Under the pieces are notes generated by a model. That model searched no databases, had not been told where the DNA came from, and was given only the letters and a program-made list of their open reading frames with translations. A DNA stretch of 64,000 nucleotides from Drouetiella sp. Lineage in GTDB: Bacteria > Cyanobacteriota > Vampirovibrionia > Obscuribacterales > Obscuribacteraceae. The translations under genes were made by a program, and so were the position numbers. Shown piece by piece: positions 1 to 61,202 of the stretch (within the stretch, counting starts at the first letter, position 1; every line of letters starts with the position of its first letter). The stretch covers positions 70,313 through 134,312 of the forward strand of contig DATNPZ010000001.1 in NCBI GenBank assembly GCA_036702965.1, written 5' to 3'.

Positions 1-408
1 GCGAAACATTTCGCGAGTCATGCCCGTGAGCTTGAGTCCAATCTGCTCTTCACCACCAGGTCCACGAAATTGCCTTGTCACATCTTTATTATTCTGATCT
101 CGGTCGACGACTTGGACCGCTCCATCATTGAAGTCGCGGATAATTTTCAGGCGCGTTCCATTGTTAGTAATATCGATACTGGCAATGTATGGCATTTTGG
201 AATTGGCATTTGGCCGACGCGCTTCACGTTCGCTCGGGCGACCTTCACGCTCTGGAAAATCATAAAGAATCGCCCAGACAGCGCTGGCGATTGTTGATTT
301 GCCGTACTCATTGCTTTCGACAACCAGATTCAGCTTGTTGTTTTTAAACTCGATTTTTTCACCGGAGATGTTTCCGAAACCGGCGAAGTCAATCCTTTCA
401 ATCCACAT
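1..408 (-). CDS. SbcC/YhaN-like AAA ATPase, N-terminal fragment (continues beyond window edge)
   Basis: My own minus-strand translation from the ATG at 408 gives MWIERIDFAGFGNISGEKIEFKNNKLNLVVESNEYGKSTIASAVW... The Walker A motif (NEYGKST) sits where SbcC/Rad50-type ATPases have it. The start overlaps the stop of the upstream phosphoesterase gene by 11 nt (ATGTGGATTGA). It is absent from the ORF track because there is no stop inside the window. Confidence 0.6.
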   Translation of the reverse strand, partial: MWIERIDFAGFGNISGEKIEFKNNKLNLVVESNEYGKSTIASAVWAILYDFPEREGRPSEREARRPNANSKMPYIASIDITNNGTRLKIIRDFNDGAVQVVDRDQNNKDVTRQFRGPGGEEQIGLKLTGMTREMFR

Positions 409-1669
409 CGCGAACAGTCACCCTCTTTTGTCTAAGCGCATCCAAACCGTAATATAGAGCATCTTCAATTAAGCTAGCAGTTTCATCGATGGTATCAGAA
501 GTAGTATCAAAGTTTTCCACGTTTCTCTTCAACCGCAAAAGTCTGTCGACAAATTTCGCTTCAGTCGTTCGCTCGTCAAAATCCTCAGAGAGATAATCAG
601 GTCGGGTATAGTCCATCACAGCGACATTGTAATAGCGTTCGCGCAAGGTTTCTATCACTTGCTCTCGATTACTGTCGACGCGATAGTTTCCTTCCAGTTG
701 CAAAAACACAAGATCCGTCTCAATGCGACCACCCTGATCCGCGATACTCATTGTGATCTCTTCCAACATTTCTTCCCCGGTTAGACCTGAAATATCAGCG
801 TGAACCATGACCATGCGGCGGTTATCCAGCTCCAAAGGTTCAATGGTACATTGCCAAACGCCAAATTCGTTGGTTTGTATCGAACCAAGTAAGGCAAACC
901 GCGGACCCAGTTCGTCGAAACTGCGACCGGCAAGGGACCCCGAATACGCTCCGAGAATCTCACCGCCGCCCGACAAGACCTCTGTGTAATCTTGATAATG
1001 TCCAAGTGCCGTGTAGGTGAATTGAGCTGCTTGCAGTTCTTCTGCAGTGAATGGGCTGTAAGGAGCTAGCTCGTGAGCGCGGTCGGGTCCGGTGTAGCCG
1101 TCGATCGAGCCACACAGAAGAAGGATATTAACGTCGGCGTCCGCATCTTTTGGAATTGCAAATTCAAGAGGATGATCCGGCTGCGGTTCAGGCGATTGCA
1201 ACGCACGTCCGGTAAAAGTCACCTCTTGTAGAGCGGGATGTTTGTAGTTTGAAAATTCCAGAGTTTTGAAAATGTGGACGTTCTTCGACCATGTCGGCAG
1301 TCCGTGCAGCTTGAGGAAATTATCGTTATAAAACGACTCTTCCGAGTAGCAATCCCTGTCGCCTGGGGCGATTAGAACTGGAATGTCGCCAAGTTCGGCG
1401 AATCCGGCAACAACCCTCTGCACAGTGTGCATTCGAATCGTTTCGTTATGCCATAGATCCCCTGGAACAAGAACAAAATCGACTTCTTCCTGCTTTGCTA
1501 CTTCCAGGGCGAGTAGAAAAACCTCGAGCAACTCTCGTCTCCGCACCTTCCTTTCGGGCAGAGATAGAGGCAACTTGAGAAAACTAAGCTGTGAATCCAG
1601 ATGAACATCTGAAAGCTGGAGAAACCTCAGTTGTCTGGATTCTTTCGACACGCTCTTCCTGATGCTCAA
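398..1669 (-). CDS. SbcD/Mre11/YhaO-like metallophosphoesterase (DNA repair exonuclease family)
   Basis: 423 aa. Calcineurin-like phosphoesterase motifs LSDVHLD, VLVPGDLWH and LIAPGDRD are in the N-terminal third. The gene is translationally coupled to a Walker-A ATPase gene downstream. Confidence 0.75.
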   Translation of the reverse strand: MSIRKSVSKESRQLRFLQLSDVHLDSQLSFLKLPLSLPERKVRRRELLEVFLLALEVAKQEEVDFVLVPGDLWHNETIRMHTVQRVVAGFAELGDIPVLIAPGDRDCYSEESFYNDNFLKLHGLPTWSKNVHIFKTLEFSNYKHPALQEVTFTGRALQSPEPQPDHPLEFAIPKDADADVNILLLCGSIDGYTGPDRAHELAPYSPFTAEELQAAQFTYTALGHYQDYTEVLSGGGEILGAYSGSLAGRSFDELGPRFALLGSIQTNEFGVWQCTIEPLELDNRRMVMVHADISGLTGEEMLEEITMSIADQGGRIETDLVFLQLEGNYRVDSNREQVIETLRERYYNVAVMDYTRPDYLSEDFDERTTEAKFVDRLLRLKRNVENFDTTSDTIDETASLIEDALYYGLDALRQKRVTVRDVD

Positions 1670-1679
1670 CGAGCGATTT

Positions 1680-1905
1680 GACTGCGTTTATCCCAGAATA
1701 GTGCAGGCACGTTACCCAGCGACCAGAGCTCGACGCCAGTGGCACTAACTTGCCTACGACCAGAGTTCGAGACAGTGGCACTGACTTGCCCTACGACCAG
1801 AGTTCGGCAAAAGTGGCACTGACCAGCCCTATGACTCGAGTTAGACGACAGTGGCACTGACTTGCCCTACGACTCGAGTTCGACAACAGTGGCAATGCCT
1901 TGCCC
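1680..1905. repeat. Tandem array, ~36-38 bp unit, ~5-6 copies, seeded from the thiolase 3' coding end plus stop
   Basis: The landmark AGTGGCA occurs at 1738, 1774, 1812, 1850 and 1888. The copy at 1867-1905 is the thiolase C-terminus ([12 protein letters not shown]) plus TAG. The outermost copy (~1680-1716) is degenerate. Confidence 0.85.
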
Positions 1906-3075
1906 TACGCCGATGCACATCGTCGCCAATCCATAGCGAGAACCGCGTCGTTTCATTTCGTGAATGAGCGTGCCGAGAATGCGCGAGCCGCTGCTTCCCA
2001 GAGGATGTCCTAGCGCGATAGCGCCACCATTCACGTTTACTTTCTTGCTATCCAATCCCAGTTCTCGCATGCAGCAGAGTACCTGCACAGCAAATGCTTC
2101 GTTCAATTCGATCAAATCGAGGTCTGAAATTTTCAGACCAGCTCGCTCGACAGCCTTACGGGTAGCTGGTATCGGTCCAGTGCCCATGATTGATGGATCG
2201 ACTCCAGCGACTGCAGAGCTGACAAATCTCGCGATAGGAATAAGACCAAGCTCTTTGCACTTCTCACGCGACATGATCAATAAGGCGCTTGCACCATCAT
2301 TGATACCAGAAGAATTGCCGGCAGTAACGGAGCCATTTTCACGAAACGCGGCTTTGAGCTTCTTCAAGTCTTCCAGCTTGGTTTCTGGACGAGGCTGTTC
2401 GTCAACAGAGAACAATTCAGGCTCAGCGCTTCCTTTTTTCTTCGGCAATTGAACAGGGACTATTTCATTCTCGAACTTACCAAGACGCGCAGCCTCAGCG
2501 TATCTCATCTGACTTTCAATCGCGTACTGATCTTGATCTTCGCGAGAAATCTTGAATCGTTCGGCGACATTCTCCGCAGTTTCACCCATCGAATCAGGTG
2601 GGAACATATCGGCAAGCTTCTTGTTCACGAAGCGCCAACCAAGCGTCGAATCGACGAGTTTCTGATTGCCGCGAGCAAAAGCTGTCGTATTTTTGAGCAC
2701 TACGTATGGTGCGCGAGTCATCGACTCGACGCCGCCAGCGATGTAAATGTCGCCATCGCCAACCTGGATCGCGCGACAAGCATCGTTGACTGCCATCAAA
2801 CCCGATCCGCAAAGTCGATTCACCGTGGCGCCAGGAACAGCGGCAGGCAAACCAGCAAGCAGCAAAGCCATTCTAGCCACGTTGCGATTATCCTCGCCAG
2901 CTTGATTGGTGCAACCGAGGATAACATCTTCGATCTGACCGGGGTTGACGAAGTTACGCTTGAGTATTTCTTCGATCACAACCGAGGCTAAATCGTCCGG
3001 TCGAATATCCTTCAACGCGCCACCGTAACGTCCTATCGGCGTACGTACAGCATCAACGATCACTGCTTCTTTCAT
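1867..3075 (-). CDS. Acetyl-CoA acetyltransferase (thiolase)
   Basis: 402 aa. Thiolase signatures are NRLCGSGL (active-site Cys), [15 protein letters not shown] and CIGVGQGIA. Confidence 0.95.
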
Positions 3076-5160: not shown

Positions 5161-5478
5161 ATCAAGAAGCCTGGTGGATTACTTGAATCGGAGCATGGGA
5201 TTAAGAGACCTGTTGAATTTCACGAATCAGAGCATGGGATTAAGAGTCCTTGGTGGATTTCTCGAATCAGAGCAAGGGATTAGGAGTCCTTGGTGGATTT
5301 CTCGAATCAGAGCAAGGGATTAAGAGTCCTTGGTGGATTTCTCGAATCAGAGCATGGGATTAAGAGTCCTTGGTGAATTTCTCGAATCGGAGCAAGGGAT
5401 TAAGAGGCCTGGTGAATTTCTCGAATCAGAGCAAGGGATTAAGAGGCCTGGTGGATTTCTCGAATCAGAGCAAGCAGG
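5161..5478. repeat. Tandem array, 39-40 bp unit, 8 copies, seeded from the 3' coding end plus stop of the 5439..7301 gene
   Basis: The landmark TTAAGAG/TTAGGAG occurs at 5201, 5240, 5280, 5320, 5360, 5400 and 5439, and there is a degenerate copy at 5161. The copy at 5439-5478 encodes LLALIREIHQAS plus TAA on the minus strand. Confidence 0.9.
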
Positions 5479-7301
5479 ATATCCCGATTCAATTCCTGAC
5501 TTACGTATTCGATGTACTTCACCTGCCAGTTTTCAATGTCTTTGATAATCACTGACAACGATGTCTGCGCAGACCGAGCTGCCGCCATATCGACTCCAAC
5601 TTCGCCACCAGCACCCATCGTGAAAATTCGCGCGCGACCAGAGTATCCAATACTGTCGCGCAGAGCCAGACGCAAAAACGCAAGACTGAGATTTGGGGTA
5701 ATTTTCTCTCCAACAGCGACAACAAGCTGCTGGAACTTGTCGAGAGGTCCGTGCAGATCCACTTTCGGCACCTTCAAAAGCTCGTGATGCAAAAGCAAAT
5801 TAACGGCAGTTGTCAGCTCAGATGTGGTGATATCACCCATGTACTTGATGGCAGTAGCTAGTGTCGTCAAACCATCCATTGCAGCCCAGACACGCTGTGC
5901 TCGCTCCATCTCCGCGGTGGAGACGGGCTTCTTCTCCTGTGGATCTTCCAACTGAGTTTCGAGTATCTCTTTTTCGTCAGGCACTTTCTCAAGAACAGAG
6001 TTCATTCCCTTCGGCAATTTCTTCAATACGGAATCCGTGTTGTCTTTTGCCAGCGCAGCATCGAGCAACAGCTTGTCCAGAGGCTTGCTCGTCTTACACG
6101 CTTCTTTGGCCAGATCGGCTGGTGGTGTGCGTTGAATGAATACGAAAATTCCTTCTGTCCACGACGACGCAAATTCAGTGACGGCCGAATTGCCAACAAC
6201 TTTTCCAACCTTTGCGTGCGTGATTCGACCAATCTCGAACATGGCTCGGAATTGCATATCTTTGTATTCAACAGAGAGCACGCCGGTTTCACGGTTGGTG
6301 GCAATATTTTGCAAAAGATTGGAAGGATCTGTTGTACCAAGGTGGCCGACAAGCGACTGCACTTGCGTCTCTTCGCCAGAGGTCTTGACCAACTTCACCT
6401 TTTCGGATTCAGATGATTGACCGTAGAACGAAAGATCCTGCAAAGCAATTTCGAGCTGCCGCGTGTTGAAAAATCCCTTCTTCACTGCAAGCGGACCGAT
6501 AGTGACGCGGTCTTTGACAGGAGTGGACTGGAGCTCAAACAGCAATTCGTCTAATTGATCTTGAGTCACCAGCCGTGATGCTAAAAGCAAATCCTTCAAA
6601 CTGAATGGAGTTTGATTGCGGAAGCAATTAACAAGAAACGGAACTTTGTTGAAAATCGGATAAATTGCTCGACTTTGCTCTAGTGCTTTCAACTCCTCGA
6701 TCAGCTCCTCTGCATCCATTTTCGATTGAGTTGTGAGTCGATGACTGATTGTGCTCAGTGGGGTGTAATTGTCGATAGCCGCGATAACGGCATTTCGTCG
6801 GCGAGGCTGATCCATCCCGGCTTTCAGTTTTATGCCGAGGTGAGTCAGGACTGGAACTGTTGACATCAACACCTGTTGTGACAGGTCCGTGCTCTCTTCG
6901 CTGAATCCGCCACTCTTTCCGAGGACGGATTGCACGTTGCGCGCGAGCGGTGCAGAGTAATCAAACAGCTCGGAATGATTTTCGAAAATGTGAAAGTTGA
7001 GCGAGCCCATCAAAGTATCTCGTACAATGGCGACCGCTTTATCAGACTTGAGAAAAACCAGGGCGCCCTGTACTTCAAGAAGCTGGTTTGCGAGGTGACC
7101 TGCTTCAATCAGAACTTCTGCGGGGAACAAGTATCCGCAGGCAGTCGCATCGATCAAGACCGCATCAAATAGATGCTTACCACCGGCGAGCCCTTGCAAT
7201 TCGGCGATCAAATCCGCCCCATATTTGAGAACAACAACGTTCTCCTGGGCCATCATGCGGCTTAACCGCTCGGTTATAACCTCGTTGGATTCGACTACCA
7301 T
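5439..7301 (-). CDS. DUF4388-like domain protein with receiver-like N-terminus
   Basis: The segment TGVLSVEYKDMQFRAMFEIGRITHAKVGKVVGNSAVTEFASSWTEGIFVF matches the DUF4388 pattern as I remember it. One GspE-N/MshEN-like helix pair is present (LVTQDQLDELLFELQ...GFFNTRQLEIALQ). The ORF track starts at TTG 7343, and the first ATG (MVVESNEV) is at 7301. Confidence 0.55.
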   Translation of the reverse strand: MVVESNEVITERLSRMMAQENVVVLKYGADLIAELQGLAGGKHLFDAVLIDATACGYLFPAEVLIEAGHLANQLLEVQGALVFLKSDKAVAIVRDTLMGSLNFHIFENHSELFDYSAPLARNVQSVLGKSGGFSEESTDLSQQVLMSTVPVLTHLGIKLKAGMDQPRRRNAVIAAIDNYTPLSTISHRLTTQSKMDAEELIEELKALEQSRAIYPIFNKVPFLVNCFRNQTPFSLKDLLLASRLVTQDQLDELLFELQSTPVKDRVTIGPLAVKKGFFNTRQLEIALQDLSFYGQSSESEKVKLVKTSGEETQVQSLVGHLGTTDPSNLLQNIATNRETGVLSVEYKDMQFRAMFEIGRITHAKVGKVVGNSAVTEFASSWTEGIFVFIQRTPPADLAKEACKTSKPLDKLLLDAALAKDNTDSVLKKLPKGMNSVLEKVPDEKEILETQLEDPQEKKPVSTAEMERAQRVWAAMDGLTTLATAIKYMGDITTSELTTAVNLLLHHELLKVPKVDLHGPLDKFQQLVVAVGEKITPNLSLAFLRLALRDSIGYSGRARIFTMGAGGEVGVDMAAARSAQTSLSVIIKDIENWQVKYIEYVSQELNRDILLALIREIHQAS

Positions 7302-7466
7302 CGCCCTCAGCTCAACAGCCGCCAGATTCGGACACCCCGCCAACAGGTAGTATGCCCAGGAAAGTACGATAGCAAATCCTTACGGTAAACTTCCGGTATT
7401 GGCTTTTGCGGAAGTTGCTTTGAATTGCCATAATCTAGACTTATCAGACGCAGAAAGTCGGAGCGG

Positions 7467-9242
7467 ATGTCGAATCGAATGAAAATTTCCGGTCTCCGAT
7501 TAGTCAAATCATTCTCAGTCGTAAGTTGCTGTAGTGTTCTTGGCGGGTTGTTGTGCGGCGCTGCTGTGGCGCAAAATCAAACGTGGACACAGTCGCCGAA
7601 TCCTATGCAAAACCAATATGGGATGCAGTCCTCAAATAACTCGCAAAATCAGTACGGGATGCAGTCCCCGAGTAACTCGCAAAATCGATATGGGATGCAG
7701 TCCCCGAGTAACTCGCAAAATCAACATGGGATGCAATCCCCGAATAACTCGCAAAATCAATATGGGATGCAGTCCCCAAATAACTTGCAAAATCGATATG
7801 GAATGCAGTCCCCAAACAACTCGCAAAATCAGTACGGGATGCAGTCCCCAAACAACTCGCAAAATCAGTATGGGCTGCAGTTTCCAAACAACTCGCAAAA
7901 TCAGTACGGGATGCAGTCCCCAAACAACTCGCAAAATCAATATGGGATGCAGTTCCCGAATAACTCGCAAAATCAATACGGGGTGCAGTCCCCAAATAAC
8001 TCGCAGAATCAATATGGGATGCAGTCCCCGAATAACTCGCAAAATCAATATGGGATGCAGTCCCCGAATAACTCGCAAAATCAATATGGAATGCAATCCC
8101 CGAATAGCTCACAAAATCAGTATGGAATGCAATCCCCGAATAGCTCACAAAATCAGTATGGAATGCAGTCCCCGAGTAACTCGCCCTTTAGTACTTCGAA
8201 TCTTCAGGACGAAGCAAACTTGAATCCCGAGGCTAAATCACTTTTTTCACAAGCTGTTCGACTCTTAAAGACCAACAAAGCTTATCAAGCCAGAGATCTA
8301 CTTGAACGCGCTTCGATGCTCGCTCCCAAGTCAGCGGAAATACACTGCAATCTTGGTTTGGCTTATCAAAATTCCGGCAATATGCAAAAAGCGTTGACTG
8401 AATTCAAAACAGCGCTGACACTCAATCCCAGCATGCCCGAAGCGAAACTGAACCTAGCTGGATGTTACCAGAGCATGGGTGCAAACAAAGATGCGATTAC
8501 ATGGTATTCAGCTTATTTACTGGATAGAGACGCAAACGATCCCCAGCGAAAGCAAATAGACGATATCATCACGGCGCTGAAGCAAACGAATCCAAAGACC
8601 GGCGGAGATGCAAATGCGGGCGACTATTTTACTAGTGTCACCGCCGACGGTGCATTTCGATGGACAAAAGAAAAGTTGCCAATCAAAGTTTACGTTCAAA
8701 ACGCGATTGTAAACTCTGCCGGGAATCCCGTTTCAGGATTTAAACAATCGTTTCGGACTTCCCTTCTCAGCGCATTCAAAGATTGGTGCGAAGCTTCCAA
8801 CAATCGCATAGCCTACGTTGTAGTTCCTGATAAAGAGCACGCTGATATTTACTGCACCTGGACGTCAGACCCGATAGAAGTAACTGATAATGGCACTTCC
8901 AGCGAGCGCGGAGCTGCGAAAGTAATAGTTAAAGGAAATAACATCGAGCGCGCTACTTTAAAAATCCTGACTCGCCCAGTACTCGAAGATGGCTTGCTGA
9001 GCGAGGATGATATGACCAAAGCATGTTTGCACGAAGTTGGACACGTTTTGGGACTTCAGGGTCACTCAACGAATAACCACGACGTTATGTTCTTCACGGT
9101 AGATACAGCAACCGTTTGGCCGGTTTTATCGAGAAGGGACAAATCAACGATTGCCAAGCTGTATAAAGACTATCCAGTCATGACAACGATGTCAGCAAAG
9201 AAGAAGGGTTCGACGAACGCGCGCGGAGCCCACCAGCGCTGA
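7467..9242 (+). CDS. Secreted Q/N-repeat - TPR - metzincin (matrixin-like) zinc metalloprotease
   Basis: 591 aa. The signal peptide ends ...GAAVA-Q. It is followed by 16 copies of QNQYGMQSPNNS, then TPR repeats (AEIHCNLGLAYQNSGNMQKALTEFKTALTLNP), then a C-terminal HEVGHVLGLQGH (HExxHxxGxxH) motif with a Met-turn candidate VMF. Confidence 0.75.
   Translation: MSNRMKISGLRLVKSFSVVSCCSVLGGLLCGAAVAQNQTWTQSPNPMQNQYGMQSSNNSQNQYGMQSPSNSQNRYGMQSPSNSQNQHGMQSPNNSQNQYGMQSPNNLQNRYGMQSPNNSQNQYGMQSPNNSQNQYGLQFPNNSQNQYGMQSPNNSQNQYGMQFPNNSQNQYGVQSPNNSQNQYGMQSPNNSQNQYGMQSPNNSQNQYGMQSPNSSQNQYGMQSPNSSQNQYGMQSPSNSPFSTSNLQDEANLNPEAKSLFSQAVRLLKTNKAYQARDLLERASMLAPKSAEIHCNLGLAYQNSGNMQKALTEFKTALTLNPSMPEAKLNLAGCYQSMGANKDAITWYSAYLLDRDANDPQRKQIDDIITALKQTNPKTGGDANAGDYFTSVTADGAFRWTKEKLPIKVYVQNAIVNSAGNPVSGFKQSFRTSLLSAFKDWCEASNNRIAYVVVPDKEHADIYCTWTSDPIEVTDNGTSSERGAAKVIVKGNNIERATLKILTRPVLEDGLLSEDDMTKACLHEVGHVLGLQGHSTNNHDVMFFTVDTATVWPVLSRRDKSTIAKLYKDYPVMTTMSAKKKGSTNARGAHQR
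7572..8183 (+). repeat. In-frame 36-nt coding tandem repeat (16 full copies plus 1 degenerate)
   Basis: The nucleotide unit caaaatcaatatgggatgcagtccccgaataactcg is repeated head-to-tail and encodes QNQYGMQSPNNS. All three frames on both strands give long spurious ORFs here. Confidence 0.95.
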
Positions 9243-18236: not shown

Positions 18237-18722
18237 ATGCAAAAGGTAACACCGTTTTTGTGGTTTGATGAACAAGCAGAAGAAGCTGTCAACTTCTACA
18301 CGTCGATATTCAAGAATTCAAAAATCAAGCAAGTATCACGCTACGACAGAGACAGTGCTAAAGCTTCGGGGCGCGCGGAAGGCTCGGTCATGGTCATAAC
18401 TTTCGAACTGGATGGTCAGGACTACATGGCTTTAAATGGCGGTCCCGTGTTCAAATTCAATCCAGCGATCTCGTTTATGATCAACTGCGACACACAAGAA
18501 GAAATCGACAGAATGTGGGACGAGCTCAGCGATGGAGGCAGCATTCAAGGCTGCGGTTGGGTGACGGACAAGTTCGGAATTTCATGGCAAGTGGTGCCAA
18601 AAGTTTTCGGAACAATGATGAAAGATCCGGATGCTGCAAAAACACGTCGCGTCATGGCATCACTTTTGCAGATGCAAAAATTGGATATCGAGGCACTCGA
18701 AAAAGCATTCGCAGGCGTTTAA
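18237..18722 (+). CDS. VOC-superfamily protein, PhnB / 3-demethylubiquinone methyltransferase-like domain
   Basis: 161 aa. MQKVTPFLWFDEQAEEAVNFYTSIF...KFGISWQVVP is characteristic of this family. A GAGGAA RBS lies upstream. Confidence 0.85.
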   Translation: MQKVTPFLWFDEQAEEAVNFYTSIFKNSKIKQVSRYDRDSAKASGRAEGSVMVITFELDGQDYMALNGGPVFKFNPAISFMINCDTQEEIDRMWDELSDGGSIQGCGWVTDKFGISWQVVPKVFGTMMKDPDAAKTRRVMASLLQMQKLDIEALEKAFAGV

Positions 18723-18857
18723 TCACGCTTGTCGAGGGACAGCGCCTCGCAGGCGTTTAATCACGCTTGCCGAGAGACAGCACTCGCAGGCGTTTAATCA
18801 CGCTTGCCGAGGGACAGCACTCGCAGGCTTTTAATCACGCTTGCCGAGGGACAGAAT
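18709..18857. repeat. Tandem array, 37-38 bp unit, 4 copies, seeded from the 3' end plus stop of the VOC gene
   Basis: TCGCAGGCGTTTAA (TCGCAGGCTTTTAA in the last copy) starts at 18709, 18747, 18784 and 18821. The first copy contains the real FAGV codons plus the TAA at 18720-18722. Confidence 0.9.
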
Positions 18858-18936
18858 GCGCGTCCAGACAGAACCGTATTTAGTGCCACCGTATTAAGTG
18901 GCACAATCGCGAGCGTTCAGTTTCATAAACATAAAT

Positions 18937-19008
18937 CTGGGGTGCAAGGATTCGAACCTCGGAATGGCTGGATCAGAACCAGCTGCCTTACCACTTGGCG
19001 ACACCCCA
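18937..19008 (-). tRNA. tRNA-Gln (anticodon CUG)
   Basis: The minus-strand sequence is TGGGGTG TC GCCAAGTGGTAAGGC A GCTGG TTCTGAT CCAGC CATTC CGAGG TTCGAAT CCTTG CACCCCA G. It folds as a cloverleaf with a U1-A72 pair and G73 discriminator, as in bacterial tRNA-Gln. No CCA is encoded. Confidence 0.9.
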
Positions 19009-19024
19009 ATGTGCTTGTCTTAGC

Positions 19025-36975: not shown

Positions 36976-37548
36976 TTGCGCATTCTCGGAATAGACCCTG
37001 GCACAGCCACAGTCGGATATGGCGTAGTGCAATCGTTTGGTGGCGGAGGCAAATCCTCGCTGCGTTATGTCACCTCTGGCATCATAAAGACAACGAATCG
37101 AGACACCACTGGCGACAGGCTCTCTATTATACGAGCAGATATGCTCGAACTTATCAGTCTATATAATCCTGATGTAGTTTCAGTCGAAGCAATTTTCTTT
37201 TTCAAAAATGCCAAAACTTTGGTGCCGGTTGCGCAAGCTCGAGGCGTAATTCTCGAAGCTGCCGCCAGCAGGAAGCTTCCGACATTCGAATATACGCCGA
37301 TGCAAGTCAAGCTGCATTTAACCGGATACGGTCGAGCCGAAAAATTGAGCGTGCAAACGATGATCGCTGAGCTCTTAAATTTGCCAGAAATAATCAAGCC
37401 CGACGATGCATCTGACGCGCTTGCCATCGCAGTATGTCATGCACGTATGTGTCCGATCCCTTATGTTGCAGAGGCTCCGGCAAAAGTGGACGAAGGACCA
37501 ATCAATGTCGCCGAAGCACCAATCAATGTCGCAGAAGCACCAATCTGA
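36976..37548 (+). CDS. ruvC: Crossover junction endodeoxyribonuclease RuvC with repeat-containing C-terminal tail
   Basis: (M)RILGIDPGTATVGYGVV and DASDALAIAVCHA are present. The start is a TTG at 36976. The tail ends GPINVAEAPINVAEAPI, encoded by a 21-nt tandem repeat. Confidence 0.9.
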   Translation: MRILGIDPGTATVGYGVVQSFGGGGKSSLRYVTSGIIKTTNRDTTGDRLSIIRADMLELISLYNPDVVSVEAIFFFKNAKTLVPVAQARGVILEAAASRKLPTFEYTPMQVKLHLTGYGRAEKLSVQTMIAELLNLPEIIKPDDASDALAIAVCHARMCPIPYVAEAPAKVDEGPINVAEAPINVAEAPI

Positions 37549-40243: not shown

Positions 40244-40969
40244 ATGCAGACACCGAACACTCTCACGCGTTTACTACTTGTTGATGATGACCAAAAGTTC
40301 TGCCGGTTAATTTCGGATTATCTTTCACGGTTCGGCTACGAAGTGCACGCGGTGCACAGCGGTACTGAAGGCATACAGAAGGGCACCGAGGACTCATGGC
40401 ACGCAATCATTCTGGACGTTATGCTGCCGGGGATGGACGGATTCGAAGTATTGCAAAAACTTCGAGAGCACATCGCAACACCAGTGTTGATGCTGACCTC
40501 GCTCGGGGAAGAGACAGACCGCATCGTTGGTCTGGAATTAGGAGCCGATGATTATCTGCCAAAGACTTCATCACCAAGAGAGCTTTTAGCGCGATTGAGA
40601 GCTGTTTTGCGAAGGACGGCAAGACCAGTGCCCGAGGGCAACGATCAACCAGCACAAGAAATTGTCATCGGTCCGCTGCGAATCAACCTTGGTGCCAGAG
40701 TTGCATTCCTCGAGGAGGAGACTCTGCCGCTAACTCCCGTTGAGTTCGATATCCTCGTTGTGCTTGCGCAATCAAAAGGGCGTGTAAAGTCGCGAGAAGA
40801 GTTGATCAACGAAATTCGTGACAGGAACTATGACGTATACGATCGTTCAATCGACGTACACGTTTCAGCATTGCGAAAAAAATTGCACGATGATCCCAAA
40901 TCTCCTCGCTTTATTCGTACTGTCCGAGCTGCGGGATACATGCTGATTCCGCCTAACGAGAAACTGTGA
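40244..40969 (+). CDS. OmpR-family response regulator
   Basis: It has a receiver domain (LLVDDD, ILDVMLPGMDG, KTSSPREL) and a winged-helix output domain (LTPVEFDILVVLA...IRTVRAAGYML). Confidence 0.92.
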   Translation: MQTPNTLTRLLLVDDDQKFCRLISDYLSRFGYEVHAVHSGTEGIQKGTEDSWHAIILDVMLPGMDGFEVLQKLREHIATPVLMLTSLGEETDRIVGLELGADDYLPKTSSPRELLARLRAVLRRTARPVPEGNDQPAQEIVIGPLRINLGARVAFLEEETLPLTPVEFDILVVLAQSKGRVKSREELINEIRDRNYDVYDRSIDVHVSALRKKLHDDPKSPRFIRTVRAAGYMLIPPNEKL

Positions 40970-42714
40970 TGAGAGTGCGATTTCCATTGTATGCGCAGAC
41001 AATAAGCTTTCTGCTTATTCATCTGATACTACTATTGGTGCTATTTCTAACGCTCTTCAATACCAAATTTGGACCGGGATGGGATGCTGTTTTATCGAGT
41101 CCCATAGGCGATCGGGTAGAAGCGATTGGTTGGGTAATTCAGAAGCAGCTCGAGGTGAATCCGAGAGCAGAGTGGAGCAATGTTCTAGACGAATTCGGAA
41201 AGTTCTACGGAGTGGATTTCTATCTATTCGACTTTGCCGGTAGACAACTTGCCGGCGAAACTATCAAATTGCCCGATGCAGTGGCAAAAGAAGTCGTCAG
41301 ACATCGCCATCCGCAACGAGAAAACGGCCGCGCCCCTGGAGCACAACAACCAGGTGTACAAAATGAGAGAGCACCAGCAGTGGGGCTACAATCAGATGAT
41401 AATTCAGGGCACGCACCAGCAATCGGCGGGCCCGAATCCAATGGAGAGAGTGACAGAGCTCCTGCGCTCAGGTCAGAATCCACTGGACAGGGTGACAGAG
41501 CTCCTGCGCTCAGGTCAGAATCCGATAGTCAGGACGTCGGTCCAGATGAAAAACCACAACAGGTTGATGTGCCACAACCATCAACTTTTCCGCCAACCAC
41601 AGGCGCGCCACCAGGGGCGATGCGCAGACATTTCCGTGGAAGGTACGTAATTCACACAACATCACCTGACAAATTTTGGATTGGCATTCGCATTCCAACT
41701 TTAAGGAACGGTCGATTAGTTCCAAGCACACTGCTCGCAGCAGCAGACAATCTCTGGCAAACGGGCGTTTTCTTCGACTTCAAACCAATTCTCGTTTTGG
41801 TCGGAGGAGTGCTATTGCTCTCGGTTATATTCTGGTGGCCATTTGCTTACCGCATAACTCGAGCATTGGCAGAGATGACAAAAGTGACTGAACGTATCGC
41901 AGAAGGAAGATTCGAATCGCGAGTCAAAGTCAACAAATGGGATGAAATCGGCTCGATGGGTGAAGCCGTGAATCAACTAGCATCGAGGCTTAACACCTTC
42001 GTGACCGGCGAGAAAAGATTTCTTGGAGACATCGCTCACGAATTATCCTCACCGCTGGCAAGACTGCAAATCGGGTTGGAATTGCTTGAGACTTCAGCAA
42101 CGAGCGAACAAGAATCGATGATTTCAGACATACGCGAAGAAGTGGAAGAGATGACACATCTAGTCAATGAATTGCTTGCATTTTCTAAGGCTGGATTGCA
42201 AGGAAAAGAGATAGAGTTGGTGCCGCTCAACCTTTCAAACTTACTCACGAATGTGACGCTCAAGACAGCTTCTGAACAGCTAGTGAAACTAAATATCGAC
42301 AAAGATCTGACAGTGTTGGGTGATCAGCTTTTGCTTGAACGTGCATTTGGAAACGTCTTCAGAAACGCTGTCCGTTATGCCTCCGCGGATGGTGACATTA
42401 AGGTGAAAGCGGTTCGCACAGGCGACACGATATGCGTCACCACGTCCGACAATGGGCCAGGAGTGCCCGCTGCAGCGATAGAACATCTAACAGAACCGTT
42501 TTTCCGCCCCGAGCCTTCACGCAGTCGCAGCTCTGGAGGAGTCGGACTCGGTCTAGCCATCGTACAAACTTGCATCGAGTCATGTGATGGCGCTCTTTCA
42601 ATCAGGAACAAGCAACCCAAAGGCTTAGAAGTCGAGATCCGATTAAAAGCGGCTACAAGTGTGCCAAAACCCAGCGATCGCCCACCGACCGCCAAAGAAG
42701 CGAAGCAAGTGTAA
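40966..42714 (+). CDS. Sensor histidine kinase (HAMP-HisKA-HATPase) with low-complexity extracytoplasmic region
   Basis: The H-box is IAHELSSPLARL, the N-box is NVFRNAVRYA and the G-boxes are DNGPGV / GGVGLGLAIV. The start overlaps the response-regulator stop (GTGATGA). Confidence 0.9.
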   Translation: MMRVRFPLYAQTISFLLIHLILLLVLFLTLFNTKFGPGWDAVLSSPIGDRVEAIGWVIQKQLEVNPRAEWSNVLDEFGKFYGVDFYLFDFAGRQLAGETIKLPDAVAKEVVRHRHPQRENGRAPGAQQPGVQNERAPAVGLQSDDNSGHAPAIGGPESNGESDRAPALRSESTGQGDRAPALRSESDSQDVGPDEKPQQVDVPQPSTFPPTTGAPPGAMRRHFRGRYVIHTTSPDKFWIGIRIPTLRNGRLVPSTLLAAADNLWQTGVFFDFKPILVLVGGVLLLSVIFWWPFAYRITRALAEMTKVTERIAEGRFESRVKVNKWDEIGSMGEAVNQLASRLNTFVTGEKRFLGDIAHELSSPLARLQIGLELLETSATSEQESMISDIREEVEEMTHLVNELLAFSKAGLQGKEIELVPLNLSNLLTNVTLKTASEQLVKLNIDKDLTVLGDQLLLERAFGNVFRNAVRYASADGDIKVKAVRTGDTICVTTSDNGPGVPAAAIEHLTEPFFRPEPSRSRSSGGVGLGLAIVQTCIESCDGALSIRNKQPKGLEVEIRLKAATSVPKPSDRPPTAKEAKQV

Positions 42715-56211: not shown

Positions 56212-56315
56212 CCGACCGCACATCCAATTGGGAGCACCCGGGTTTGTCAACGGTGAAAGCGTTGATCCGCCCGGTTTCTTCTTCGATTCGCTTAGCTGAT
56301 TGCCGGGTCCGCACT

Positions 56316-56686
56316 GTCCATCCAGCTCTTCCAAATCCTCACGCTCTCAGGATATCCAGCTCTCTCAATCCTTAATGCCTCTGGATATCCAGCTCTCTCA
56401 AGCCTTACTGCCTCTGGATATCCGGCTCTTTCAGAATCCTCACGCTCTCAGGATATCCAGGTCTTCCAAATCCCCACGCTCTCAGGACATCCAGCTCTTC
56501 CAAATCCTCACGTTCTCAGGATATCCAGCTCTTTCAATCCTTACGGCCTCAGGATATCCAGCTCTTTCAATCCTTACGGACTCAGGATATCCAGCTCTTT
56601 CAATCCTTACGGACTCTGGATATCCGGCTCTTTCAGAATCCTCACGCTCTCAGGATATCCAGCTCTTCAAAATCCTCACTGTCCTC
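56316..56686. repeat. Intergenic tandem array, 33-35 bp unit, 11 copies
   Basis: The unit is GGATATCCAGCTCTTTCAATCCTTACGGACTCA with variants. Every unit starts with the 8-bp palindrome GGATATCC (GGACATCC in one copy, and degenerate GTCCATCC in the first). There are no unique spacers. Confidence 0.9.
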
Positions 56687-56752
56687 GGACATGTGAAAAC
56701 GGCGAACTCTTCCCTGACCAGCGGGTGAGTCGTACCGCCCGGCTCCACACCG

Positions 56753-56868
56753 CCCCTCGGACATGACGCCCCTCGGACATACGGACGGTCCCTCTGATAC
56801 ACGGTCCCTCTGATACACAGTCCCTCGGACACATAATCCCTCGAATACACAGTCCCTCGGGCACACAA
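56753..56868. repeat. Intergenic tandem array, 16 bp unit (one 20-bp copy), 7 copies
   Basis: The copies read CCCCTCGGACATGACG, CCCCTCGGACATACGGACGG, TCCCTCTGATACACGG, TCCCTCTGATACACAG, TCCCTCGGACACATAA, TCCCTCGAATACACAG, TCCCTCGGGCACACAA. Confidence 0.85.
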
Positions 56869-57108
56869 TCAATGGACCCCACGAAGCGAAAAGCCCTCGC
56901 GCTTCCGCACCCCCGACATCAGAAACAACAACCCGAGAGCGTCGCTTGCTTATAGAAGCCCACCAGTGGACGTTTTCCAGCCTTTACAATTCCTTTGCAA
57001 AAAAACCTCCAAAAAACATAAGTGCTTTACGCGGTTGCGATTAGATAAATAGTGTCAGCAGTTGGACTGTTGATTCATAAAACAAAGCGACGTTAAACCG
57101 GAGCTGAA

Positions 57109-57258
57109 ATGTACAAAGAGGAGCACACTGAACAAAAAGGCAAAAAGCCAGTTGAGGCATTCAAAATTGCACTGATTGTTCTGGTCCTAGTTCTCCTGAT
57201 TTTAATTGCAGTTTCGGTAGCGACTGTCACCTCGACCAACCATCCAGGAGTTTTGTGA
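57109..57258 (+). CDS. Small single-pass membrane protein (49 aa; below ORF-track cutoff)
   Basis: My own translation gives MYKEEHTEQKGKKPVEAFKIALIVLVLVLLILIAVSVATVTSTNHPGVL. GGAG lies 5 nt upstream of the ATG. Confidence 0.4.
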   Translation: MYKEEHTEQKGKKPVEAFKIALIVLVLVLLILIAVSVATVTSTNHPGVL

Positions 57259-57329
57259 TTTAGGATTCAACTGCTAAGTCTTTCCGTGAAATATTCACAT
57301 TAATCGACGCAATAAATGGAGTTCAACAA

Positions 57330-59377: not shown

Positions 59378-59557
59378 TCACTGTTTCGCGTCGCGAACAT
59401 AAGTCAATGGTTTGGCATCGCGAACATAAGTCATGGTTTGGCATCACGAACATAAGTCACGGTTTGGCATCACGAACATTCACGGTTTGGCATCACGAAG
59501 ATAAGTCATGGTTTGGCATCGCGAAGATAAGTCATGGTTTGGCATCGCGAACATAAA
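59378..59557. repeat. Tandem array, 23-27 bp unit, 7 copies, seeded from the 3' coding end plus stop of the GT-C gene
   Basis: Units start with TCA (TGA on the minus strand) at 59378, 59404, 59431, 59457, 59480, 59506 and 59532. The last unit, TCATGGTTTGGCATCGCGAACATAAA, encodes YVRDAKP plus stop. Confidence 0.9.
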
Positions 59558-61202
59558 CGCGATACTTCCACGGAACGACGTCAGGAGATTCGGAAAACGA
59601 ATCTACTTCACGGAATCCAGATAACAACCGCTGGGAAAAATTTGACTGCGCGCGACAGGAATCCAACTCTTTCGACTCTTGCTTGAGAAAAATGATCCGC
59701 GGCTGGCGAGCACTCGCGTCGTCCAAAATCTTTCCGATCTCCTCGCCAACACGTTCATGAAATTTGGCAGCACTCGTAGAATTATTGCTGGAGATCGCCT
59801 GAAACTCGGCGAGTTTGTTGATACCCATCAAGAATGGAAAAGGGTATCGACTGCCCAACTGCACACCGTACTGTAAAATCGCCGGGTACTCGGGCAGCAG
59901 AATCTCACTGATCATAAGCTCTCTATCGCCCGGTTTAACCTCTCGCATTAAAGTGGCAAGCATTGGACTGACTTTTGCTTTTTCATCGAGTGCCTCTTTC
60001 AAGCGAGCGCTCAGCGCACGACCCGCTGTCGGTTCTTCTAAACTAAAAGCATTAATTGCTGGCAAAATTTTTGCACTGTCCATCCCAAAGAATCCCAGAC
60101 CAGCTACCGCCAGAGTGACCATCACCAATTTCTCGTAAAAGCCTTCGGACGTTCCGGACTGCTTCAACTTGAACCCCGCGCCACGGATTAGCGCGGCGAC
60201 GACAATGCCAGCAAGCATGAGAATGCCTAGCCACATCGGGATCTTGTAGTAGTCCCACCACTTCCGCTGAATCACCACACTCAAGTATCCAGCAATCGTG
60301 AATACAATTAGTGGCGGGATGATGGGATGTTTTTTCCGCAAAAAGGACGCAGTCAAAACACTGCCTAAAAAGGCTACGAATATCTGAGGCCAGTATCTTC
60401 CGCCCAGAACCAAACTGAGTAACCAGCTACATCCATAGAAATTTTGGAAAAGCGGATATTCAACAATGATTTGTTTGAATGCGTCCCGCATCGCATGTGG
60501 TACCAGTAAAAAATGCACCGGATACGACACCAACGCAATCAAGCAAGTGATTGTTTCTGGAGTGAAAAGCGTGCGCCACTTTCTGAACCTGAACAACCAG
60601 TAGAGTTCGCACAGAATCGGCATCGTCAGAAACTGAGGTTTTAAACACAATCCGATCGCTGCAAACAATCCAGCGATGATTGCAATGGTGCGATTTGGTG
60701 TTTGTCCTTCCCATCGAGACCAGCGCACAAAGAAGAACGGTAAGTAAGAGAGTAAGAAAATATGTTCCCGCTGACCAAATTCGCGGCCGATGACAGAACC
60801 CGTGCAGGCAATCACCGCCAGAACACAAGCCAGATACAGCCATTTCTCGTCGTCTAAAAATCTTCGTTTAACCGTTGCCAGGATCAGACAAAAGGAGAAG
60901 ATGGCAAACAATTCAATCACAAACTTGAAGATGACAATTATGTGCACGTTGATCAGGTGAGCGACAAATGCCGGAATGACACTCAAGTAGATGATCAGTG
61001 GTGGATTGATGTCCACAAAGTCCACATACGGAACGCCTCCGTTCAACAACATTTGCGCGAAATGCAAATACATCGAAGGGTCCCAGTTCAACTGCAAAGG
61101 ATCAGCAAGTTGCACAACGGTGGAATGCGCGAAACAAAAAACATAGACAGCGATCAAACACAAAAATGCGCTGCGACTGATCGTGTTCTGAGGAGTGTTC
61201 AT
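59532..61202 (-). CDS. Polytopic membrane glycosyltransferase, GT-C fold (GT39/83/87-like)
   Basis: 556 aa with about 12 TM helices. An N-terminal loop GGVPYVDFVDINPPL resembles the acidic first-loop motif of polyprenyl-phosphate-sugar dependent transferases. There is a soluble C-terminal domain. Confidence 0.5.
   Translation of the reverse strand: MNTPQNTISRSAFLCLIAVYVFCFAHSTVVQLADPLQLNWDPSMYLHFAQMLLNGGVPYVDFVDINPPLIIYLSVIPAFVAHLINVHIIVIFKFVIELFAIFSFCLILATVKRRFLDDEKWLYLACVLAVIACTGSVIGREFGQREHIFLLSYLPFFFVRWSRWEGQTPNRTIAIIAGLFAAIGLCLKPQFLTMPILCELYWLFRFRKWRTLFTPETITCLIALVSYPVHFLLVPHAMRDAFKQIIVEYPLFQNFYGCSWLLSLVLGGRYWPQIFVAFLGSVLTASFLRKKHPIIPPLIVFTIAGYLSVVIQRKWWDYYKIPMWLGILMLAGIVVAALIRGAGFKLKQSGTSEGFYEKLVMVTLAVAGLGFFGMDSAKILPAINAFSLEEPTAGRALSARLKEALDEKAKVSPMLATLMREVKPGDRELMISEILLPEYPAILQYGVQLGSRYPFPFLMGINKLAEFQAISSNNSTSAAKFHERVGEEIGKILDDASARQPRIIFLKQESKELDSCRAQSNFSQRLLSGFREVDSFSESPDVVPWKYRVYVRDAKP

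Follow-up and report, generated by a model that had tools for sequence, protein, structure and literature searches.

A tandem array copied from the 3' end of a thiolase gene in an uncultured Obscuribacteraceae lineage

How does the tail of a gene come to be repeated beyond its own stop codon, and does such a repeat serve the gene that follows? This question is raised by positions 70,313 to 134,312 of contig DATNPZ010000001.1 (GCA_036702965.1; Obscuribacterales, Obscuribacteraceae), a stretch of 64,000 nucleotides (nt) hereafter called the window. Here a gene encoding a thiolase of the acetyl-CoA acetyltransferase family is followed on the same strand by an array of 38-nt direct repeats and then by a gene for an SbcD/Mre11-like metallophosphoesterase. 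In our view the array is probably a lineage-specific and essentially neutral minisatellite, which arose from the 3' end of the thiolase gene by slippage between two short CGTAG arms and which has no dedicated function.

Tandem Repeats Finder identifies an array with a period of 38 nt at positions 1720-1909 (5.1 copies, 83% matches, score 247), which bears out the claim of a first-pass annotation that the coding sequence of the thiolase C-terminus is repeated, together with its TAG, downstream of the gene. Read on the minus strand, i.e., the strand of both the thiolase gene and sbcD, the array consists of one coding unit (U0) and four non-coding units (U1-U4), arranged head-to-tail without spacers (Table 1). 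As abutting direct repeats with a unit of ~10-100 bp, it falls within the definition of a minisatellite. The similarity between the units had been predicted to exceed that of shuffled sequence and indeed does so: comparison of the array with itself at a lag of 38 nt gives 96 matches in 150 positions, whereas shuffling gives 54±2.4 (63 at most). The non-coding units have diverged by 13-24% from the coding copy, and no further copies of the unit were detected outside 1720-1909 in the window at up to three mismatches. The stop codon of the thiolase gene (TAG, 1869-1867) forms the first triplet of U1, and all four downstream units start with TAG; the earlier statement that TAG is kept in the first three downstream copies thus holds for those three, but not in its limitation to three. 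U0 has a TAG of its own, which is out of frame, within GTA GGG, and which comes into frame exactly one unit later since 38 ≡ 2 (mod 3).

The thiolase frame stays open for 66 codons beyond the TAG, up to a TGA at 1668-1666 (window positions 1666-1866, minus strand). The single-nucleotide deletions in U3 and U4 hold the later TAG triplets out of this frame. The open frame is probably incidental, and we saw no evidence of readthrough.

The array does not extend to the next gene. Repeat accounts for 147 of the 215 nt of the spacer between the thiolase gene and sbcD, and the other 68 nt are unique. It had been proposed that the array fills the whole spacer up to a TTG start codon at 1669 and that a degraded sixth copy is present at ~1680-1716. 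This copy, tested as 1682-1719, has only 19 of 38 identities to the unit consensus, compared to 21±2.2 in shuffled sequences; the array ends at 1720, and the 3' part of the unique sequence resembles the short thiolase-sbcD spacers of relatives. The proposed start codon is also doubtful, as sbcD more likely starts with the GTG at 1651-1649. The SbcD proteins of relatives begin with V-(S/G)-K-E-S-G-Q-F-K-F-L-Q-F-S-D-V-H, which aligns to VSKES..., an independent gene call gives a protein of 417 amino acids (aa), and a Shine-Dalgarno-like AGGAAG is located 4 nt upstream of the GTG (1660-1655, minus strand).

Comparison with relatives indicates which of the five units is the original one. When the DUF4388 protein encoded upstream of the thiolase gene was used to scan species-representative genomes, four metagenome-assembled genomes (MAGs) were retrieved, all ~86% identical in this protein and labelled Melainabacteria, Obscuribacterales, Cyanobacteria bacterium SZAS, and Drouetiella sp. 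In total, 12 loci (L004-L008 and L014-L020) from ~8 distinct lineages of Melainabacteria/Obscuribacterales MAGs and contigs were compared, L015 and L017-L019 carrying the same SbcD proteins as L014 and L016. The gene order DUF4388-LRV-thiolase-sbcD is kept at all 12 loci. At none of them is the thiolase gene followed by a tandem array, and the spacer to sbcD is ~25-50 nt; these relatives (~71-76% identity in SbcD) possess a single copy of the thiolase tail versus five in the window. The thiolase C-termini of the relatives (eight tails read) have the form ...GVGQGIAT[VI]VALE(S/N) followed by the stop, which always falls within one codon of that of the window: seven of the eight tails have it at the very codon where the window has its own, and it lies one codon earlier in L007 and L020. 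The thiolase of the window also matches that of Thermus (PDB 1ulq, E = 2.7e-144) in an alignment that runs into the C-terminal tail, and 1ulq ends three residues beyond the aligned tail segment. Since the tail is conserved in relatives as well as in solved thiolases, U0 is the original copy. The non-coding units deviate from it at codons that are conserved in relatives, with GGC ATT (Gly-Ile) changed to GTC AGT and GAG (Glu) to TGG, which indicates that the non-coding states are derived. Judged from these alignments, the coding unit U0 is the native sequence and the ancestral source of the array. The four further units, 150 nt in all and copied from the thiolase tail, form an insertion specific to this lineage within a probable intercistronic spacer.

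A scan of metagenomes for closer relatives resulted in one locus at 73% identity, and a search with the SbcD protein gave nothing between 100% and 76% identity in the databases searched. The locus labelled Drouetiella sp. (L006, DATNPY010000065.1) shares 86-88% protein identity and the full gene order with the Obscuribacterales/Melainabacteria loci. Drouetiella is a name that we take to belong to a photosynthetic cyanobacterium, and the taxonomic label of this locus looks doubtful.

The ends of the native unit suggest how the array was formed. Microhomology-mediated tandem duplication calls for two arms, each 3 nt or longer, that bound the founding unit and are one unit length apart, and the two CGTAG arms (Table 1) have this arrangement, the proximal one lying exactly 38 nt upstream of the second. 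According to a recent preprint, this type of duplication is the dominant route to bacterial tandem repeats and seeds multi-copy repeats (bioRxiv 10.64898/2026.02.28.708716). Another paper, PMC8639346, reportedly deals with this mechanism as well. We infer the following order of events. The ancestor would have been single-copy, reading ...GG-CGTAG-GGCAAGG...GAGT-CGTAG, with the stop held in the second CGTAG and followed by a spacer of ~25-70 nt to sbcD. Replication slippage between the 5-nt arms, 38 nt apart, would then have duplicated the last 38 coding bases. The junction would have rebuilt ...GAG TCG TAG in frame, so that the protein remained unchanged and the duplication was neutral; with the stop codon inside one of the arms, even a duplication reaching into the tail of a conserved enzyme could be fixed. 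The downstream copy, freed from selection, would have accumulated changes, and at least two more rounds of slippage or unequal exchange would have produced the four non-coding units.

The differences between the units fit such a history. G10T and T13G are common to all four non-coding units, T23C occurs in U1, U3, and U4, and G33T and A34G are common to U2-U4. These shared derived changes point to at least two later rounds in which units that already differed from U0 were amplified, and not to one burst. The identities of the non-coding units to U0 (33, 30, 32, and 29 of 38 for U1-U4) are lower than the 90-93% matches of the neighboring arrays, which suggests that the thiolase array is the older one. 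The single-copy state that would have preceded the duplication, i.e., one tail and then a short spacer, is present at the 12 relative loci, where the nucleotide arms differ. Furthermore, other young arrays of unrelated sequence, both coding and non-coding, occur in the lineage of the window and are absent from its relatives, which fits a generally raised rate of slippage or duplication.

Several observations weigh against this explanation. At its distal end the array reads ...GGTCG and then CTGGG, without a clean CGTAG arm, so that decay or a small deletion has to be invoked. With no close relatives at hand, the single-copy ancestor with CGTAG arms is reconstructed rather than observed. Neutrality is assumed, and an intercistronic distance that is longer by 150 nt could alter the expression of sbcD. 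Finally, in four of five gene-tail arrays, including this one, the unit ends 0-4 nt past the stop, which random slippage does not predict.

How does the thiolase array compare with known systems? As in microhomology-mediated tandem duplication, a segment present once between short direct repeats (CGTAG in this case, at a distance of 38 nt) is duplicated head-to-tail and then expanded. The arms are reported to decay with age, and the preprint text that was searched mentions neither stop codons nor intergenic placement (bioRxiv 10.64898/2026.02.28.708716). In yeast, this type of duplication is reported to become more frequent when the flap nuclease Rad27 is lost. What sets the present case apart is that one arm holds the stop, so that the duplication is silent at the protein level and TAG is present in every new unit. 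The array also resembles the mycobacterial interspersed repetitive units (MIRUs) in that it lacks spacers and lies between genes of a probable operon. MIRUs of Mycobacterium tuberculosis are reportedly ~40-100 bp long, arranged head-to-tail between genes of operons, and variable in copy number between lineages. Their related units are dispersed as a family over many loci and contain short open reading frames (ORFs) arranged for translational coupling. In contrast, each of the arrays described here has its own unit, taken from the tail of the adjacent gene, and no ORF design for coupling is evident in the thiolase array. A gene 3' end that is repeated just downstream of the stop is also reminiscent of the variable and template repeats (VR/TR) of diversity-generating retroelements. 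These are two copies of ~100-150 bp lying apart from each other, accompanied by a reverse transcriptase gene and differing specifically at adenines. We rejected such a pair, as the array has five abutting 38-nt units with substitutions of all types (G>T, T>G, T>C, A>G, and others) and no reverse transcriptase domain was found in 40 ORFs of the window. Given direct repeats 26-40 nt long in an organism that belongs to the cyanobacterial radiation, one may also think of clustered regularly interspaced short palindromic repeats (CRISPR) and the long and short tandemly repeated repetitive sequences (LTRRs and STRRs) of cyanobacteria. STRRs are, however, repeats of heptamers, and a CRISPR array was rejected since the units abut without unique spacers and there are neither cas genes nor a leader. 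No literature was found on arrays that span the stop codon at gene tails in bacteria, or on repeats in Melainabacteria; the coverage of this search was incomplete and its outcome is weak evidence of novelty.

The thiolase array is not the only one of its kind. A census of 79.7 kb of the lineage (the window and ~15 kb of flanking sequence of the same population on contigs L001 and L009) revealed five strong arrays that span a stop codon, none that span a start codon, and three that are intergenic (Table 1), versus no strong stop-spanning array in ~134 kb from relatives. Each of the five starts within the last codons of its gene and repeats the stop of that gene in every unit, and their units are unrelated. 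Where this could be checked, i.e., for the arrays at 5172-5474 and 59383-59556, the end of the coding copy roughly coincides with the native terminus. In relatives the DUF4388 gene ends with ...LIREIHQAS and the stop at the same position, and the conserved spacer of ~100 nt that comes next has no array; by this comparison the array behind the DUF4388 gene is likewise a lineage-specific insertion. Its most distal unit has TGA, the stop of the relatives, and its coding and proximal units have TAA. Distant homologues of the 556-aa protein (46% identity) have their C-termini no more than one residue away from its own.

Table 1. Genes, repeat units, and tandem arrays at the thiolase locus and in the rest of the lineage (positions refer to the window unless a contig is given)
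Feature	Position	Strand	Description
U0, coding	1870-1907	-	TAGGGCAAGGCATTGCCACTGTTGTCGAACTCGAGTCG; last 38 nt of the thiolase gene, encodes its C-terminus
U1, non-coding except for the stop	1832-1869	-	TAGGGCAAGTCAGTGCCACTGTCGTCTAACTCGAGTCA; 33/38 identical to U0
U2, non-coding	1794-1831	-	TAGGGCTGGTCAGTGCCACTTTTGCCGAACTCTGGTCG; 30/38 identical to U0
U3, non-coding	1757-1793	-	37 nt (1-nt deletion); 32/38 identical to U0
U4, non-coding	1720-1756	-	37 nt (1-nt deletion); 29/38 identical to U0, most diverged
Unique residual spacer	1652-1719	-	Not a repeat copy; similarity to the unit consensus no better than in shuffles
Proximal microhomology arm CGTAG	1905-1909	-	Within codons GGC GTA GGG; exactly 38 nt upstream of the second CGTAG
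Distal microhomology arm CGTAG	1867-1871	-	TCG TAG; contains the thiolase stop 1869-1867
Thiolase gene (acetyl-CoA acetyltransferase family)	1867..3075	-	Pfam Thiolase_N 1.2e-84, Thiolase_C 3.7e-51
SbcD/Mre11-like metallophosphoesterase gene	398..1651	-	Pfam Metallophos; homologues named SbcD by their sources
Gene-tail array 2	5172-5474	-	40 nt × 7.7; ...LLALIREIHQAS + TAA, last ~11 codons of the DUF4388/PatA_N gene (5439..7343)
Gene-tail array 3	18704-18854	+	37 nt × 4.1; last 4-5 codons + TAA of a PhnB-like (PF06983) gene (18237..18722), plus 18 nt
Gene-tail array 4	59383-59556	-	26 nt × 6.8; ...VRDAKP + TGA of a 556-aa protein without Pfam domain (59532..61202)
Gene-tail array 5	L009:10495-10706 (~6.7 kb beyond the right end of the window)		51 nt × 4.2; ...KKMLLED + TAA (last 14 codons) of a 185-aa gene
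Intergenic array	56319-56679		33 nt × 10.3; higher-order period of 169 nt
Intergenic array	56788-56870		16/32 nt × 2.6-4.6
Intergenic repeat	L001:7741-7946 (left of the window)		94 nt × 2.2; flanked by the end of the SbcC-like gene and by a convergent acyltransferase gene, overlaps neither stop
In-frame coding repeat	7570-8184	+	17 × 36 nt (12 aa); N-terminal part of a TPR + matrixin (Peptidase_M10) protein, ORF 7467..9242
RuvC C-terminal repeat	37491-37545	+	In-frame 21 nt × 2.6 (EGPINVA EAPINVA EAPI, then stop); gene 36976..37548, ends exactly at the stop
In-frame duplication	41434-41523	+	42 nt × 2.1, 93% matches; inside a histidine kinase gene (40966..42714)

Repeats are also found inside genes of this lineage. 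The TPR-matrixin protein is 591 aa long here versus 384-429 aa in relatives, which align only from about residue 235-250; with shorter orthologues in relatives, its 36-nt coding array is lineage-specific as well. The contigs that span the thiolase array and the array at L009:10495-10706 show no variation in copy number, and the latter is identical in two samples (L009 and L010). Short-read Logan contigs end within the more uniform arrays at 5172-5474 (starts of L001 and L002), 59383-59556 (starts of L009, L011, and L013), and 18704-18854 (end of L021). Some details of the arrays are worth recording. Just past the array at 18704-18854 lies a tRNA-Gln (CTG) gene (18936-19009, minus strand). The array at L009:10495-10706 has a higher-order period of 102 nt, and 12 nt separate its end from the stop of a convergent gene. 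The two intergenic arrays of the window are mutually unrelated; they share a 1.1-kb intergenic region (56212-57329), and neither derives from an obvious gene end.

The position of so many arrays at gene ends could point to a process that is anchored at the stop codon. The end of translation or transcription, e.g., through an R-loop or a polymerase conflict that starts at the point of ribosome release from the mRNA, would then drive duplication of the last 25-50 nt of genes, with the new copies placed 0-4 nt after the stop, and the thiolase array would be one product. This idea concerns the origin of the arrays and is compatible with an array without function. The census counts, both those of the lineage and those of its relatives, speak for it, as do the ~0, 4, 18, 1, and 4 bases by which the units (38, 40, 37, 26, and 51 nt, respectively) continue after the stop; a rough binomial estimate for four of five values being ≤4 is ~0.0015, or ~0.01 when the post hoc choice of the threshold is allowed for. 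The RuvC repeat, moreover, ends exactly at its stop. Five cases with a threshold chosen afterward are, however, a small sample, the genes involved lie on both strands, the three other arrays are plainly intergenic, and the 40 ORFs of the window that were scanned include no reverse transcriptase, transposase, or Cas gene. Most of the pattern can be explained by survivorship: a duplication spanning the stop spares the gene, whereas an internal one disrupts it and one spanning the start adds decoy start codons. Spacers are about as short as the units, so that stop-spanning survivors should be common under such a filter. The filter does not, however, predict the place of the stop within the unit, and this clustering is suggestive of duplication endpoints tied to the stop, which five cases cannot establish. 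A motif common to the five gene-tail units was considered and rejected: TCGAG occurs in three of them, where by our own estimate chance alone would supply ~0.4 such 5-mers, and the excess of CTCGAG is only mild. Neither a shared fold nor a significant motif was found among the five units. We regard a stop-anchored process as rather unlikely. If it were real, it would link the end of translation or transcription to replication slippage, or reflect a defect in the processing of Okazaki fragments or flaps that selection filters to gene ends.

Does the array affect the gene behind it? The first-pass annotation had proposed that the nuclease operon has its 5' leader or its promoter spacing set by the copy number of the array. 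On this reading the expression of sbcDC would be tuned by how many units there are, much as at a contingency locus. The location of the array is suitable for this, as it lies 68 nt upstream of the sbcD start and lengthens the distance between the thiolase gene and sbcD by 150 nt, to ~4- to 9-fold that of relatives. Yet a search of 1300-2300 gave neither a sigma-70-like promoter nor an intrinsic terminator, and the RNA fold of a transcript covering 1640-1910 is no better than those of shuffled sequences (z = -0.58). The relatives manage with ~25-50 nt and no array. Units that differ by 13-24% are a poor substrate for rapid phase variation, and the comparison of copy number across assemblies, which had been suggested as a check, gave an identical number of units in all four assemblies available. 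Equivalent arrays follow unrelated genes, and those at 18704-18854 and L009:10495-10706 face a convergent neighbor and have no downstream gene to regulate. The context of the genes is also informative. A gene for an LRV/HEAT-repeat protein lies upstream, 8 nt from the start of the thiolase gene, with the DUF4388/PatA_N gene further upstream, and sbcD overlaps a gene for an SbcC-like protein of 925 aa (contig L001). The distances of 8 nt between the LRV and thiolase genes and of ~25-50 nt between thiolase and sbcD in relatives, the sbcD-sbcC overlap, and the conserved gene order suggest that LRV-thiolase-sbcD-sbcC probably form one operon. As sbcD follows so closely on the thiolase gene in relatives, it is most likely co-transcribed with it, without a need for promoter spacing set by the array. 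We consider a regulatory role of this kind improbable, and the annotated claim remains unsupported. The rest of the window contains chromosomal housekeeping genes (PGK, GAPDH, RuvC, cytochrome oxidase, cytochrome b/Rieske complex, pyrophosphatase, and others), and no mobile-element genes were found among the 40 ORFs scanned.

It is still less probable, and in our opinion very much so, that the array binds a protein in an iteron-like fashion around the 11-bp palindrome CAGTGCCACTG, or that it forms hairpins which stabilize the 3' untranslated region in the manner of repetitive extragenic palindromic (REP) elements. The T13G change, common to all non-coding units, does turn CATTGCCACTG into a palindrome. 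This palindrome is perfect only in U1 and U3, with one further mismatch each in U2 and U4, and it is not enriched, having one other occurrence in the 64 kb. Its 1-nt loop, moreover, cannot form a hairpin. The sole inverted repeat found in 1600-1950 is the self-palindrome ACTCGAGT. The stable stem-loop that an intrinsic terminator or a REP-like 3' stabilizer has is lacking in the array. A single unit folded as DNA is, like the transcript, no better than shuffles (z = -0.55). A comparison with Rfam families gave no match to the array and only a tRNA elsewhere in the window, and no significant motif or structure links the thiolase array to the other gene-tail arrays. That the array results from the assembly, as a collapsed or expanded repeat or a chimeric join, has a negligible chance, since, although short-read contigs of the same population break inside other, more uniform arrays, three independent Logan contigs from different runs (L001-L003) span the thiolase array and match the window at 311 of 311 aligned positions, and its units differ enough (83% matches) for unambiguous assembly.

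By itself, the thiolase array is an ordinary and probably neutral minisatellite, yet an unusually clear one: both arms are still visible, sister lineages retain the single-copy state, and the stop is located inside one of the arms. Its wider value lies in its company, since a short part of the genome of one uncultured lineage contains at least five gene-tail arrays, this one included. These arrays fragment short-read assemblies of this organism and could serve as markers for the typing of strains. If arrays prove to be anchored at stop codons throughout the genome, this would suggest a mutational process that is specific to the lineage.

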